DNA from: Verrucomicrobiota bacterium
GTDB lineage: Bacteria; Verrucomicrobiota; Verrucomicrobiia; Opitutales; LL51
DNA length: 32,000 bases
Reading direction: 5' to 3'
NCBI GenBank assembly: GCA_021294815.2
Contig: CP095464.1
Location: 90,001 to 122,000, forward strand
Shown here: in pieces, positions 13,728 to 18,131 of the stretch
Layout of the letters: each line of letters starts with the position of its first letter
Position numbering within the stretch: the stretch's first letter is position 1
The notes under the pieces: model-generated
Database searches by the model: none
Told to the model about the DNA's origin: nothing
Seen by the model: the letters and a program-made list of their open reading frames with translations, nothing else
Translations under genes and position numbers: made by a program

Positions 13728-15269
13728 TTACTGAAAAATATTGGGGATTTGAAATTTCTGTTGGACACTGTTTCGAACCCAGTAAATCTGCTCTGAAGTG
13801 GTATCAAACACTAAGAAAATCACACGGCCACTCGCCAGTTCTTCTACGACATGTTTCGTTCCCAATGCCGATATGACTCGCTGATCACTCAAGCCTATCG
13901 CATTTACGATTTCTGGAACAAAACTGTTGGCAGAGGTATCACGACGGAGATAGTAGAGTGTCCGGAAAAAATCTTGAAGCATAATGCGCCCCGAGGTCAC
14001 AATTAGGCAGCACACATTTTGCTTCATTCTCGAGGCGAGTTGCGTCGTTGCTTTTTTTGGATTTTCTATAAAATCTTGGACAAAATTTTTCGGTAACAAC
14101 GTCCCCGTATCGTAAATGCGGATCGAGTCTCTTAATCGCGCAATATTTGATGGTTCCAGCGAACGGGATATCTTCTCAAGAATTTTCATGGGCCTTTTCT
14201 CGCCTGAGAGATCCTGCAGGCGAAACATCTCTGGGATACGGTCGCCTATAAATCTGTTGAGACCGAATGCTGAAGCGGCATTTGATGCCATGTTTGCGCC
14301 TCTAAATGCCAATAGGTTATCACTATTGGATACCCTCTCAAGTGTCTTCGAAAAATAGGGCGACAATTGGGTAACCACCTCTCTTCCCGTCTCAATTATA
14401 TTTTTCACTTGCGATATTCCGCTAGACGCCTCCTGTATCCAAGTGCCAAACCTTTCAGGGGTGAAGACATTTTCGAATTTACCAGGAACGTAATTGAAGG
14501 TTGCCAAATAAATCGTCTGTGCCGCGCGATCAATGAGGAAACAAACAAACCCCGATGGATTGGGGAGAGGATATCCTCCCATAACTCCCATGACTTCTCC
14601 GATTGAAATCGGGCTTCTTTCCGCTAAAAGTTCATGTATTTGTCCAATAACGCTACGATCACTTGTACTGAAGCGGCCTGCATCGATGGGTTGGTGACCG
14701 GAAACATAAAGTTTCTGGAAAAAATTGGGATAACTCGAGGACGAAAACATCCCGCCATTCGTGATGTCTAAACAATAAACAGTTCCGCCATACATCCCCG
14801 CACGACTGTTAACAAAAATCTGTGGATTCGACCAAATTTCATTAAAAAGCTGCATATTTGTCACCGGGACAAAATCAATGTTGTCGTTGAGCTGCGCCAG
14901 ATTTTCAAGGGCTCCGGGTCTATTCATCAATTGTGCGTTGAGAAAAGGACCAAATGACGATAGGGTCCCGCAAAATTTCGCATGAGACATTCCAATAGCA
15001 CCGCGTATCGAGCTTGAAATGACAACAGAATTGGCCGGGGAATAAGGAATATTTGAGCTAAGGTTTACTTCCAAATAGGGATTGGCTGCACTAGCTTCGA
15101 CATCGGGATAATCGTTGAAATTTTCTTTGGTAAATTCAAACTTTGGAGCTCCGGGATATTCATAAAGATTATCAACCTGAGGATTTGCTTGTATTGTCGA
15201 CATTCCGCCGATTCCCCACAACATACCCATAAGGCTTTTAAATAGCCGTTTTTGAGATTTTCTTTCCAT
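13728..15269 (-). CDS. Secreted hypothetical protein (513 aa) with a duplicated novel domain; paralog of the 870-aa protein
   Basis: The track ORF is 13728..15416, and I trimmed the start to the ATG at 15269. That ATG has AGGAG 5 nt upstream, and a strong terminator hairpin at 15371-15400 lies inside the longer ORF. The trimmed N-terminus MERKSQKRLFKSLMGMLWGIGGMSTIQA looks like a signal peptide. Long colinear similarity links it to the 15519-18131 product (SSIRG.[IL]GM[ST]HAK, YCL[ED]ITNG, YPNFF..LY, NPSG....[VL]IDRAA, GKFENVFT, NVCCL[IV]VTSGR). Confidence 0.8.
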   Translation of the reverse strand: MERKSQKRLFKSLMGMLWGIGGMSTIQANPQVDNLYEYPGAPKFEFTKENFNDYPDVEASAANPYLEVNLSSNIPYSPANSVVISSSIRGAIGMSHAKFCGTLSSFGPFLNAQLMNRPGALENLAQLNDNIDFVPVTNMQLFNEIWSNPQIFVNSRAGMYGGTVYCLDITNGGMFSSSSYPNFFQKLYVSGHQPIDAGRFSTSDRSVIGQIHELLAERSPISIGEVMGVMGGYPLPNPSGFVCFLIDRAAQTIYLATFNYVPGKFENVFTPERFGTWIQEASSGISQVKNIIETGREVVTQLSPYFSKTLERVSNSDNLLAFRGANMASNAASAFGLNRFIGDRIPEMFRLQDLSGEKRPMKILEKISRSLEPSNIARLRDSIRIYDTGTLLPKNFVQDFIENPKKATTQLASRMKQNVCCLIVTSGRIMLQDFFRTLYYLRRDTSANSFVPEIVNAIGLSDQRVISALGTKHVVEELASGRVIFLVFDTTSEQIYWVRNSVQQKFQIPNIFQ

Positions 15270-15279
15270 ATCACTCCTC

Positions 15280-15306
15280 ATTATAGGAATTTTTACATTT
15301 TCACAA
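15280..15306 (-). promoter_or_regulatory. Possible sigma70-type promoter for the 513-aa gene
   Basis: The minus strand reads TTGTGA (15306-15301), a 15-nt spacer, then TATAAT (15285-15280). The spacer is short and the -10 element is only about 10 nt from the ATG, so this call is weak. Confidence 0.25.
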
Positions 15307-15400: not shown

Positions 15401-15518
15401 CAGAATTTTTATTCAAAAATCAAACAACGTCCTTAGTAGCTATTGACGTTTCGTTCCGCCCCGCCATTGGCGTATACTTCTGCCATCTCGTCAAACCATA
15501 GCTCATCATCGGGCTCAT

Positions 15519-18131
15519 TCATGAGTTCTGCTGCAAATTCCGACGCGTATGGATCGTTCTTTGTAAATGCGGATGTGGTTGATAATCCTGCCTAAATTTC
15601 GAGGATCCTAAGAATATGCCCTCATTGCTATACCCTTTGGACCTCATCATTGTCGGCCGATCACCGGAATGACGTTGACGGCTACCGGGATGGTTGGACA
15701 TTTTTCGAATACCAACCTTCAGTGGAGTATTTTTTGTGGGTACAATTTGGTCTCGACGAACCTGTTGCACTGGGACGGATGTTCTAATCGCAGGAACCTC
15801 TAATTCCATAGCTCCGTCATAACTCATACCGGAAGGCGCTTCTTCCACGAATTCAGGATCCGAATGATCCACAAGTGCCGCATCGTACCGATCGTCGCTT
15901 GAAAGTATCGACTGCGGTTGCTGCTTTCTCTGATCCCTTTGCATAGCACGTCTCTTGAATGATCGAATTCCTGACGATCCGTAGCCAAGAGAACCGGAAG
16001 TGCTATGTGCTTGTTGAATTGCTGCATTACTAACAGGCATCTCTACGATGGTTTTTGCAAGGGGATCTCCCATCCCCAACTGTCCGACAGCTACAGGTAT
16101 GGTCAGTTCTGGAGTTCCTTTAATTTCCTGCGGAATAAGCATTTTACCAACAATTGGAACATTTTTTCTGAAAGCGTTCTTCGAAGTAGCACCTAACAAT
16201 CGCATCGCCTTACGAAAGCGCCATCCAGTTGTTGGTGCTATCGCTCCTTCCCAATTTTCCCAGGATTGTGCATTGAAAATATTCGGGAATTGCGGTGGCA
16301 GTGCAAAATCGTTGTTATAAACCACTTGATAGACTTCCTTCGACGCATCGTCGATGATGTAAAGCAGCGTATCCGTATTCAAAAGCGTATCAATCGGACA
16401 TTTTTCGCCAAGAATGGAACACACTTTTCGATCGTAGATTCCATTGGCCCTAGTTACTTCTGGGATCACACGTCCATAGTCTGGATCATACTGGAAGGAG
16501 TAGAGTTTTTGGAAAAAATTTGGGCACATGAAACGTCCCGATGTGACCACTAAACAGCACACATTTCTGGCAGTTCCAATGGCGAGCTGAGCAGCTGCCT
16601 CCTGAGGATATTGAGCAAACCCCTGCTTCCAATCTTCCGTCAGAGTAATAGCCGCGTCATATAAATGAACACGATCGCTCACCCATGCCGCCCTTCCCAT
16701 TTGATTAGAGTCACGCGATAATTCTTTTGCCTTTACGCCAGAAAGTGCAATTGCCGTTTTTGCATGAACAATGAGAAGCTTTTCTAAGTCAGAATCCCCG
16801 GAAGGATAGAGAACTTTCGGCATTTTTTGGGCAAATTCGAACAGTCCGACGAGACGCGCTATTTTTAATGCGGCCAAAACCGGGCCTAACGTCGGCGCTA
16901 ATTTATCAATAACGGGTGCTACTTTGTCGCTAACCCATGTCAAATTTTCACTAGCAGAGGCTAATTTTCCACCGAATTGCTCTATGTTTTCACCGACGGG
17001 TTTTAATACACTGCTTGCAGATCCCAAAGTTTCAGTGATCGACTTCGAGAAGGGCATCCAGCTGAAAAATTTCGCCGTACCGCTTGTCCCATTGGCCACC
17101 GAATTAACAGCATTCGCCGCCTTATTGACATATTCCACAGCCGTGTCGATTTTCTCCTTATATTTTGGGGTATTTTCAGCAACGCTCTTGACTAAATTAA
17201 ATGCTCCTGGTGCATATGCCGCTCCTAATCGGGCACCCGTCGCTCCCAACTTTATGGTACCCGCCCCTACATCAGCTGCAGTCGAAGCTACGGCTGTCGT
17301 TGCTTGCTTAACGCCCCTACCTCGGTGACGCCATCTCGCGGATTGTTGTGTCCAAGCTCCAAATTTGTTTTTCGTAAAAACGTTTTCAAATTTACCATGT
17401 ACAGGCGCGTTTGCCGCCATGTAAACCTTATCAGCCGCACGATCAATTACGTAAAGAATGACTCCTGATGGATTTTTTAGCTCTCCATTTTTTAAAAGGC
17501 TATCGACTTCTTCTCTGCGAATGGGTGCCCTCCCAGCAAAAAGGCTACTCATTTTTTTGATAACTTTATTATCATTTGTACTCCAACGACCCGCATGCAC
17601 CGGATTTTCGTTAGAACGGTAGAGCGTCTTGAAGAAATTCGGGTACATCGAGGAGGAAATCGCCGAACCATTGGTAATTTCAAGACAGTAAGCAATCCCA
17701 CCACAAAAAGGGGCGATCCCATCGAGAAAAAGCTGTGGATTGGAACAAATTTCCCCACTTTGCTTCTCAGGTATGAGGGCAAGATCAAGAAAGTTATTGA
17801 TGTTCTCTAATTCCTCTAATGCCTGCCTAGACTGCCACTGCGAGTTGATGAGGGAACCATATCGTGAAAAGACATCACACAATTTCGCATGCGTCATTCC
17901 CAATTCTCCGCGTATGGAGCTTGAATTCTCGACGCGAGTTTCCGCAGCGTCAAAACCTGATTTTTCGGGTGCAATCGTGAGTTCCATGCCCTGAAAAGCA
18001 CTTTCGTCACTCATCGGCATCACATCGGGCGGCATTTCAAGAACGCTTGCTTTTCCAGAAACACCACTCGCAGCCCATAAAACGGTGCACAAGAGTCCCT
18101 TTGTAATCCAAATATACGATTTCCCTTCCAT
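15519..18131 (-). CDS. Secreted hypothetical protein (870 aa) with a duplicated novel domain, an Ala/Gly-rich linker and a basic disordered tail
   Basis: This ORF is in the track. The N-terminus MEGKSYIWITKGLLCTVLWAASGVSG looks like a signal peptide. Domain A spans about aa 130-260 and domain B about aa 515-625; they share C-L..T.G...PNFF..LY ... LY[VI]ID....VY ... F.N[VI]F. It is a paralog of the 513-aa protein. Confidence 0.85.
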   Translation of the reverse strand: MEGKSYIWITKGLLCTVLWAASGVSGKASVLEMPPDVMPMSDESAFQGMELTIAPEKSGFDAAETRVENSSSIRGELGMTHAKLCDVFSRYGSLINSQWQSRQALEELENINNFLDLALIPEKQSGEICSNPQLFLDGIAPFCGGIAYCLEITNGSAISSSMYPNFFKTLYRSNENPVHAGRWSTNDNKVIKKMSSLFAGRAPIRREEVDSLLKNGELKNPSGVILYVIDRAADKVYMAANAPVHGKFENVFTKNKFGAWTQQSARWRHRGRGVKQATTAVASTAADVGAGTIKLGATGARLGAAYAPGAFNLVKSVAENTPKYKEKIDTAVEYVNKAANAVNSVANGTSGTAKFFSWMPFSKSITETLGSASSVLKPVGENIEQFGGKLASASENLTWVSDKVAPVIDKLAPTLGPVLAALKIARLVGLFEFAQKMPKVLYPSGDSDLEKLLIVHAKTAIALSGVKAKELSRDSNQMGRAAWVSDRVHLYDAAITLTEDWKQGFAQYPQEAAAQLAIGTARNVCCLVVTSGRFMCPNFFQKLYSFQYDPDYGRVIPEVTRANGIYDRKVCSILGEKCPIDTLLNTDTLLYIIDDASKEVYQVVYNNDFALPPQFPNIFNAQSWENWEGAIAPTTGWRFRKAMRLLGATSKNAFRKNVPIVGKMLIPQEIKGTPELTIPVAVGQLGMGDPLAKTIVEMPVSNAAIQQAHSTSGSLGYGSSGIRSFKRRAMQRDQRKQQPQSILSSDDRYDAALVDHSDPEFVEEAPSGMSYDGAMELEVPAIRTSVPVQQVRRDQIVPTKNTPLKVGIRKMSNHPGSRQRHSGDRPTMMRSKGYSNEGIFLGSSKFRQDYQPHPHLQRTIHTRRNLQQNS

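Follow-up and report, generated by a model that had tools for sequence, protein, structure and literature searches.

A clade-restricted family of predicted Sec-exported proteins with an internally duplicated orphan domain, encoded beside type III secretion genes in a Verrucomicrobiota genome

Two adjacent genes, LW808_000380 and LW808_000375, lie on the minus strand of a 32,000-nucleotide stretch of contig CP095464.1 of a Verrucomicrobiota bacterium (positions 90,001 to 122,000; hereafter the window, in whose numbering all coordinates are given). They encode a long and a short member of a new, very narrowly distributed protein family, found in a poorly known verrucomicrobial lineage that carries a type III secretion system (T3SS). 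Both proteins contain two copies, termed here domains A and B, of a single domain that belongs to no described family and for which the searches run revealed no structural relative. The two window proteins are most likely non-enzymatic binding or scaffold members of this clade-restricted orphan family. The genes, and a lesion in the longer of them, are located as follows.

15433 to 18131, minus strand: long paralog LW808_000380 after frameshift correction (open reading frame (ORF) as read, 15519 to 18131, 870 aa)
15573 to 15575, minus strand: site of a probable frameshift in the long paralog by deletion of 1 nt, sequence context caa cca ca_ tcc
13728 to 15269, minus strand: short paralog LW808_000375, 513 aa, ending right after domain B (...FQIPNIFQ, then stop)

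The initial annotation of this DNA described the pair as tandem paralogs with a colinear core, each containing an internally duplicated domain, and both descriptions are borne out. Two colinear BLASTP blocks connect the long and short proteins, one covering the SSSIRG helix and domain A (47% identity over 198 aa, E 2e-53) and the other domain B (36% identity over 138 aa, E 3e-25). The same program detected matches between the two types of domain: domain B of the long protein matched domain A of the short protein with an E-value of 1e-7, and the reverse comparison gave 0.008. A hidden Markov model (HMM) seeded with domain A also matched the B regions, with independent E-values down to 1e-8. When 11 copies of domain A were compared with 10 copies of domain B by hhalign, a probability of 98.7% and an E-value of 1.6e-15 were obtained over 102 aligned columns, and the internal duplication is therefore real. 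The modular organization of the two proteins is listed below.

17337 to 17924, minus strand: long paralog, conserved SSSIRGELGMTHAKLC helix and domain A (aa 70-265; HMM envelope 120-262)
16692 to 17336, minus strand: long paralog, variable linker rich in Ala, Lys, Gly and Val (aa 266-480; net charge +11)
16272 to 16691, minus strand: long paralog, domain B (aa 481-620; HMM envelope 506-620)
16032 to 16271, minus strand: long paralog, conserved post-B segment (aa 621-700)
15433 to 16031, minus strand: long paralog, basic tail rich in S, R, G, Q and P (from composition and alignment A1)
14424 to 15017, minus strand: short paralog, SSSIRGAIGMSHAKFC helix and domain A (aa 85-282)
14145 to 14423, minus strand: short paralog, linker (aa 283-375), helical according to a low-confidence prediction (predicted local distance difference test score, pLDDT, below 50)
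13731 to 14144, minus strand: short paralog, domain B (aa 376-513; HMM envelope 401-513)

Domain B of the long protein carries the motifs NVCCLVVTSGRF, PNFFQKLY, IIDD, VYQV and PNIF, and its CC pair is identical in all eight of the domain-B copies in alignment A5. The linker is the least conserved segment of this protein (63% identity to P0002, an ortholog that is 74% identical overall, versus 80-95% in the other segments); that of the short protein is 88% identical to its counterpart in P0004. The post-B segment opens with a W-x-x-W stretch (SWENWEGAIAP), the counterpart of the C-terminal helix of domain A, and is the best-conserved part of the long protein (95% identity to P0002). The same W-x-x-W motif occurs in family members P0003, P0006 and P0007, and in the product of a 601-aa gene of the related contig L004. 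Judging from its composition, the basic tail is probably disordered; a D..E[FY].EEAP motif is conserved in it, and correction of the reading frame adds the acidic and aromatic C-terminus NEPDDELWFDEMAEVY... Two subfamilies can thus be told apart, a long type that bears the post-B W-x-x-W helix and the tail, and a short type that stops at or just after domain B. The window pair comprises one member of each, and the two subfamilies are older than the split of the lineages described below.

The ORF product of LW808_000380 is 100% identical to NCBI protein P0001 and that of LW808_000375 is 100% identical to P0005, for which NCBI also gives a length of 513 aa; the NCBI record of both is a metagenome-assembled genome (MAG) with an 878,461-nt contig. 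The length of 870 aa that was originally assigned to the long protein proved to be a frameshift artefact. The final 18 residues of that ORF are out of frame, and insertion of one base at 15573-15575 restores ...DYQP(Q/H)SAFTKND..., in agreement with P0002 (...DYQPQSAFTKND...). The adjacent frame then reads on as ...SAFTKNDPYASEFAAELMNEPDDELWFDEMAEVYANGGAERNVNSY to a stop codon, and aligns with the C-terminus of P0002 (...QSAFTKNDPHASKFTAEPVNESDDEPWPDEVMPEMYVNNG...). The C-terminus recovered in this way comprises 46 acidic and aromatic residues, the corrected stop codon being TAA at 15433-15435 and the corrected product about 899 aa in length. The frameshift, whether an indel introduced in assembly or a genuine mutation, leaves 852 of the ~899 codons intact. 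For the short gene, a TTG start would extend the ORF to 13728-15416 (562 aa), while the ATG at 15269 gives 513 aa. The ATG is the better start, because the TTG extension crosses the terminator hairpin of the upstream gene (15371-15400) and the sequence GAGGAG is situated 4 nt 5' of the ATG.

The domain was said in the initial annotation to fit no known family, and none of the resources consulted (Pfam, NCBIfam, PHROGs, PADLOC, PDB profiles, and Foldseek against PDB and BFVD) gave a significant match. In Pfam, the best score for the window proteins was 12.1 bits (DUF5382_C), versus a cut-off of 25, and a scan of all 12 family members yielded no common family. No family was assigned to the window proteins by NCBIfam or PHROGs. 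The sub-threshold similarities to ZorA (PADLOC, 15.4 bits, in the linker only) and to DUF5382_C are probably compositional and were discarded. In profile searches against PDB sequences, the stacked-domain alignment had no match, and the full-length alignment gave nothing above noise (best E 0.26).

A structural model of aa 66-268 of the long protein, built by AlphaFold2 (AF2) on a stacked alignment of 21 A and B copies, was obtained with a pLDDT of 84.6 and a predicted template-modelling score (pTM) of 0.84. The order of its elements is alpha-alpha-beta-alpha-alpha-beta-beta-alpha-alpha-beta-beta-alpha. The full-length AF2 model of the 513-aa protein was too poor for use (pLDDT 44); in this low-confidence model domain B appears as alpha-alpha-beta-beta-alpha-alpha-beta-beta, which would be the same order as in A. 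Foldseek searches with the domain-A model returned no match among 350,542 PDB chains (best E 0.45; template-modelling (TM) score at most 0.21) and none in BFVD. The likeness to profilin or roadblock folds that had been offered as speculation is therefore unsupported, no such fold being present among the 50 best PDB matches. Like those folds, the modeled domain A would be a small alpha/beta unit in which helices alternate with beta-hairpins, but its order, beta-alpha-alpha-beta-beta-alpha-alpha-beta-beta-alpha, sets it apart from them.

Across the 21 stacked domain copies, conservation of at least 90% is confined to one proline (P67, of NPQ) and one aspartate (D165, of V-I-D), and the cysteine of the domain-A YCL motif is replaced in P0006 and P0007. 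No invariant catalytic constellation of an enzymatic type (Cys/His/Asp proteases, ADP-ribosyltransferases and the like) is common to these copies, and a binding or scaffold role is therefore likelier than an enzymatic one.

Signal peptides were called by manual, heuristic inspection of the N-termini and of Kyte-Doolittle (KD) hydropathy. In agreement with the earlier description of Sec-like N-termini, all complete family members were found to combine a basic n-region, a hydrophobic core of 12-16 residues and a c-region of small residues that mostly ends in A. Among the predicted cleavage sites are VHA↓S (in ...VVTVHA↓SSS), IQA↓N, VYA↓N and VQA↓S, and the KD12 maxima are 1.3-2.9. Those of the window proteins are the following.

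18045 to 18131, minus strand: predicted Sec signal peptide of the long paralog, about aa 1-26/29, MEGKSYIWITKGLLCTVLWAASGVSGKAS; KD12 1.93
15186 to 15269, minus strand: predicted Sec signal peptide of the short paralog, aa 1-28, MERKSQKRLFKSLMGMLWGIGGMSTIQA↓NP

No lipobox ([LVI][ASTVI][GAS]C) was detected at the signal-peptide ends, and the cysteines in the h-regions of P0001 (GLLC) and P0006 (IILC) are not part of one. Outside the N-terminus, hydropathy gave no convincing transmembrane helix (KD19 maximum in the long-paralog linker, 1.51). A transmembrane reading of the linker, akin to that of inclusion-membrane (Inc) proteins, was considered and rejected; the 19-residue hydrophobic peaks do not exceed 1.8 and none is bilobed (40-60 aa). 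Translocation across the inner membrane by the Sec pathway is accordingly predicted for the family, and speaks against these proteins being T3SS substrates. Where the initial annotation called both proteins secreted, the part that stands is the presence of a Sec-type signal peptide, by heuristic reading.

The family genes diverge much faster than their neighbors. Between the window and contig L004, amino acid identity is as follows: SctV 99%, SctY 93%, AccD 92%, NamZ 83%, the N-terminus of a giant protein 77%, a 413-aa protein 60%, and the family (best match) 30-35%. For the closer comparison with contig L001, orthology was fixed by synteny, and the short paralog was compared with the P0004 gene. 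The nonsynonymous substitution rate (dN) in this comparison is 0.122 for the family gene, 0.045 for the 413-aa gene, 0.013 for the giant gene and 0.001 for sctV. The corresponding ratio of nonsynonymous to synonymous rates (dN/dS) is 0.195 for the family gene and 0.004 for sctV. In 40-codon windows the dN/dS of the family gene ranges from 0.06 to 0.40, with values as low as 0.06-0.1 in the domain cores, and motifs are kept across paralogs that are only 25-35% identical. The family gene is the fastest-evolving of the five genes compared and is under purifying selection; in view of the dN/dS values, overall and by window, the genes are considered functional. Divergence is concentrated at aa 196-255 in domain A (dN 0.39-0.41) and aa 416-475 in domain B, which are corresponding parts of the two domains.

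The taxonomic range and genomic neighborhoods, which the initial annotation had left to be defined by sequence searches, were established by HMM search, and consist of one narrow clade with arrays between accD and sctY. Exhaustive searching of 1.84 billion cluster representatives produced only 10 family proteins, and all traceable carriers are close relatives whose SctV proteins are 99-99.9% identical. A profile search with the 12-sequence alignment recovered only the three closest proteins. Locus searches gave nothing for P0006 among genome contigs or for alignment A6 among JGI metagenomes, and with P0005 returned only the K2L24-type contig that was already known.

The family genes form tandem arrays of two to at least six copies, always between accD and sctY, in which domains have been shuffled into A-B, A-A-B, A-only and B-only arrangements. 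There are two copies in the window, five in L004 (plus one in L006, from the same sample), and at least six in L007 and L005 taken together. In L001/L003 (uncultured Verrucomicrobia, SRR14411247 bin), the short gene has a syntenic ortholog, P0004, with 80% identity; sctY, sctV, a 401-aa gene and the giant gene come next. The arrays of the other two lineages, and the genes 3' of them, are as follows.

L004 (Logan SRR33454233), between accD and sctY: 601 aa (A-B), 653 aa (A-B), 365 aa (B only), 459 aa (A-B) and 431 aa (A-B); then sctY, sctV, a 344-aa gene and a 9,486-aa gene
L007 and L005 (SRR30592964): 875 aa (A-A-B), 645+ aa (A-B), 344 aa (B only), 317 aa (A) with 144 aa (B), and 386 aa (A-B); then sctY, sctV, a 344-aa gene and a 9,467-aa gene

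The fourth unit of the latter array (L005, 1620-3004) is an A-B gene split into overlapping ORFs of 317 aa (A) and 144 aa (B), whose counterpart in L004 is the intact 459-aa gene; the split may be due to a frameshift, to decay into a pseudogene or to faulty assembly. Member P0009 of L006 contains domain A only (251 aa) and is located amid housekeeping genes. A third long-type paralog, P0003 (611 aa, 43% identical to the window long protein), was observed on a 2-kb contig, L002, from sample ERZ14208469. This sample also yields the K2L24-type orthologs (L001/L003), and P0003 belongs either to another strain or species or, as an additional copy, to the same genome.

The position of the genes directly upstream of, and co-oriented with, the sctY-sctV unit was correctly described at the outset, all four being on the minus strand. 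The two T3SS genes, which are outside the family, are these.

13148 to 13537, minus strand: sctY, encoding a tetratricopeptide-repeat (TPR) chaperone (NCBIfam NF052415, 2.4e-22, 79.4 bits, cut-off 70)
11049 to 13151, minus strand: sctV, the export-gate gene of Ysc/LcrD type (TIGR01399, 881 bits)

The best PDB match of SctV is 7ALW ('Low calcium response protein', 811 bits). Among relatives, SctV retains 99-99.9% amino acid identity, with dN/dS of 0.004-0.015, despite dS values of 0.34-0.81. No other sct genes are present in the 32-kb window. The link between the family and the T3SS is positional only, and this synteny is uninformative on function because the carriers are too closely related. 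A literature search combining Opitutales with T3SS found nothing relevant.

In Ysc-type injectisomes, sctX normally lies immediately upstream of sctY-sctV and encodes a cytoplasmic, T3-secreted protein of ~120 aa. The window family shares this position with SctX (YscX), but its members are proteins of 513 and about 899 aa with predicted Sec signals. No SctX-like ORF was found upstream of sctY, there was no SctX match in Pfam or NCBIfam at E <= 1, and the PDB profile searches returned no SctX chain. An identity with SctX was rejected, hhalign of domain B against a 124-aa gene upstream of sctY in Ensifer giving a probability of 0.1%.

As had been anticipated, each family gene is followed by a terminator of its own, a stable hairpin with a U-run, and promoter-like elements precede both genes.

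15371 to 15400, minus strand: intrinsic-terminator-like hairpin after the long paralog, with a 14-bp stem, then UUUUUGUAU (-23.8 kcal/mol, z -7.05; beginning 33 nt past the corrected stop codon)
13620 to 13649, minus strand: intrinsic-terminator-like hairpin between the short paralog and sctY, then AUGUUUUUU (-14.4 kcal/mol, z -3.65)
18161 to 18171, minus strand: promoter-like element ATTGTAAAAAT, with -35-like TTGTAA, 5' of the long paralog
15280 to 15307, minus strand: promoter-like element 5' of the short paralog, consisting of GTTGTGAAAAT (TTGTGA), a 15-nt spacer and TATAAT

A (G/A)TTGTAAAAAT element is found 15-40 nt before the ATG of most family genes in the window, L004, L005 and L007, and a -35-like GTTGTAAAA element (13566-13576) is also present 5' of sctY. 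Only four sites in the window match the element with at most one mismatch, and three of these are 18161-18171, 15297-15307 and 13566-13576. In the relatives, the element is often a perfect palindrome, TTGTAAAAAT...ATTTTTACAA, with TACAAT only ~6 nt from the ATG, a spacing that hints at leaderless or near-leaderless family mRNAs. From the predicted promoter-like elements and terminators, each family gene would constitute a separate transcription unit.

Immediately downstream of sctV, and overlapping its stop codon with the start codon, is a gene for an acidic 413-aa protein (9811-11052, minus strand), which lacks a signal peptide and for which Pfam, NCBIfam and PDB gave no match. This protein evolves fairly fast (90% identity to L001, 60% to L004; dN/dS 0.15). 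Gatekeeper or regulator genes often follow sctV, and the position of the 413-aa gene would fit such an identity; nothing else backs the assignment, and it was not adopted. It is followed by a giant ORF (2-9883, minus strand), which encodes more than 3,294 aa and runs past the window edge. The giant ORF has no Pfam or NCBIfam match, and its N-terminus (MVDQLTDIRINPEEYPAG...) lacks a signal-peptide pattern. The N-terminal part of the giant protein is 76-98% identical among relatives, in which the orthologs are called at 9,467 aa (L005) and 9,486 aa (L004). Elsewhere in the window, two tandem, diverged genes for NamZ-like proteins (exo-beta-N-acetylmuramidase; 440 and 551 aa, ~30% identical) are present on the plus strand at 20398-23305, and both are conserved in L004 and L007. 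Their listed ORFs overlap by ~70 nt, and translation of the second gene probably begins at a more downstream position. Genes for tRNAs are located at 23367-23442 (Lys-CTT), 25139-25213 (Glu-CTC), 25314-25391 (Glu-TTC) and 27354-27443 (Ser-GGA). The ORF at 25293-25901 overlaps a tRNA-Glu gene and is probably spurious, the real gene being that of a thymidylate kinase at 25505-26134.

The combination of predicted Sec export, tandem amplification with shuffling, fast divergence, a variable linker and a motif-bearing tail makes exported interaction proteins the best explanation. We give roughly an even chance to the proposal that the family, specific to this clade, consists of Sec-exported proteins that engage in interactions in the envelope, at the surface or in the extracellular space. 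In the protein plan, a cleavable signal peptide and a short stretch of variable N-terminal sequence would precede a helical segment and domain A, an alpha/beta unit, after which would come a variable helical linker and the second, homologous alpha/beta domain B. To this plan the long subfamily would add the conserved W-x-x-W helix, a conserved segment of ~80 aa, and the basic tail with its acidic and aromatic short motifs. Once exported by Sec, the proteins may act where the cell meets a host or its environment, whether within the envelope, on the surface or extracellularly. Domains A and B may pack together as an intramolecular pseudo-dimer, and their most variable, equivalent stretches would then be candidates for the partner-binding face. 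The family proteins would be neither core parts nor substrates of the adjacent T3SS, and might instead be its neighbors within a host-interaction island.

Several points weigh against this proposal. The full-length AF2 model (pLDDT 44) lends the pseudo-dimer no support, and the predicted export depends on a heuristic reading of signal peptides. The adjacency to sctY-sctV is constant in all three lineages and, together with the -35-like GTTGTAAAA 5' of sctY, leaves room for a T3SS-linked role. Diversifying selection is not claimed, because the 40-codon scan contained no window with dN/dS above 1, and the rapid evolution of the family could simply reflect weak constraint. Finally, the T3SS, the giant protein and the 878-kb contig are the grounds on which the organism is assumed to be associated with a host.

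Four other explanations were weighed against exported interaction proteins. The strongest of these, which we nevertheless consider unlikely, is that the family proteins are periplasmic accessories of the injectisome (lineage-specific adaptors for assembly, anchoring or peptidoglycan clearing), encoded by sctY-sctV for joint work. Their co-oriented position upstream of sctY-sctV is conserved in the window, L001, L004 and L005, a similar -35-like motif precedes sctY, and the canonical Ysc-type neighbors of sctY, sctX included, are absent here; moreover, a Sec signal would place the proteins in the periplasm, the site of the basal body. Such a synteny, however, comes from very close relatives only, and terminators separate the family genes from sctY. 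Family identities of 30-35%, with variable copy number and architecture, would be unusual for structural partners of an SctV conserved at 99-99.9%. One member (P0009) resides in a housekeeping context, and the many structures of T3SS components in the PDB provided no structural match. A role as T3-secreted substrates or effectors, in which the hydrophobic N-terminus would be a membrane-targeting segment as in inclusion-membrane-type effectors rather than a Sec signal, is less probable still. Other fast-evolving proteins of no assigned family, those of the 413-aa gene and of the giant ORF, do occur in the T3SS neighborhood, the evolution of the family itself is effector-like in its speed, and the probably disordered tail of the long paralog carries short linear motifs. 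Nevertheless, all parts of the n/h/c signal-peptide architecture, together with A at -1, are seen in the N-termini and are conserved from paralog to paralog, while the candidate substrates downstream have no such N-termini. Neither a bilobed hydrophobic domain of 40-60 aa nor a strong transmembrane helix was detected, and no dedicated small acidic chaperone gene is adjacent.

On a par with the effector interpretation in its low probability is the possibility that a diversifying tandem array of periplasmic immunity or inhibitor proteins, comparable to the arrays of immunity genes known from other bacteria, protects against envelope-attacking enzymes of a host or of competitors. Sec signals, divergent tandem paralogs in variable number, the lack of a conserved catalytic set and the small single-domain members (A only, B only) would all be consistent with such a function. 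The Pfam, NCBIfam and PADLOC scans, however, detected no cognate toxin gene or known immunity family; proteins of 513-899 aa with long linkers and tails are atypical for immunity proteins, and the genome is apparently reduced and the clade narrow. It is highly improbable that the genes are decaying or non-functional lineage-specific ORFs (junk expansions). The frameshift near the 3' end of the long paralog, the split A/B gene of L005 and the very restricted distribution could be taken in that sense, but the proposition is already largely refuted by the dN/dS of 0.2 overall and 0.06-0.1 across the domain cores. Motifs are conserved among paralogs of 25-35% identity, the signal peptides, promoter-like elements and terminators have been retained, and the domain model is confident and compact.

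Within the explanation of exported interaction proteins, a more specific proposal can be made, tentatively and with a good deal less confidence: the A/B module may be an undescribed fold that serves as a rapidly diversifying, Sec-exported host-binding module of an uncultured, small-genome clade of Opitutales-like Verrucomicrobia. If so, it would represent a new class of symbiont surface or effector proteins, arrayed beside a T3SS export gate and a giant protein of ~9,400 aa, and a new fold at the host interface would provide a molecular handle on an uncultured verrucomicrobial lineage. This lineage, whose biology is essentially undescribed, has both a Ysc-type injectisome and a ~9,400-aa protein, in a genome that is apparently reduced. 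The family also shows in compact form, at one locus and over short evolutionary distances, how domains and genes are duplicated and domains shuffled in nature. Its significance is limited by its occurrence in a handful of metagenomic lineages, orphan families being common in MAGs.

Two groups of well-known proteins invite comparison, which is drawn here from general knowledge of those systems. CPAF and cHtrA are Sec-dependent secreted proteins of Chlamydiae that reach the host; they are recognizable proteases with known folds, unlike the window family, which has neither conserved catalytic residues nor a detectable homolog and whose export is predicted from a Sec-type signal peptide. In both cases, the proteins belong to T3SS-bearing bacteria of the Planctomycetes-Verrucomicrobia-Chlamydiae (PVC) group and carry classical signal peptides rather than type III secretion signals. 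The OMP-1/P28 proteins of Ehrlichia, Msp2/P44 of Anaplasma and Pmp of Chlamydia constitute tandem, signal-peptide-bearing surface families of obligate intracellular bacteria. The latter are beta-barrel porins or autotransporters, with which the window family has no match in sequence or fold; its unit is a soluble alpha/beta domain of ~140 aa that occurs twice per protein, in the absence of a barrel or passenger architecture. The genomic pattern is nonetheless alike: a variable number of divergent paralogs at one locus, each with a Sec signal, whose divergence far exceeds that of the flanking housekeeping genes and which are confined to one clade, host-associated by assumption in the case of the window family.

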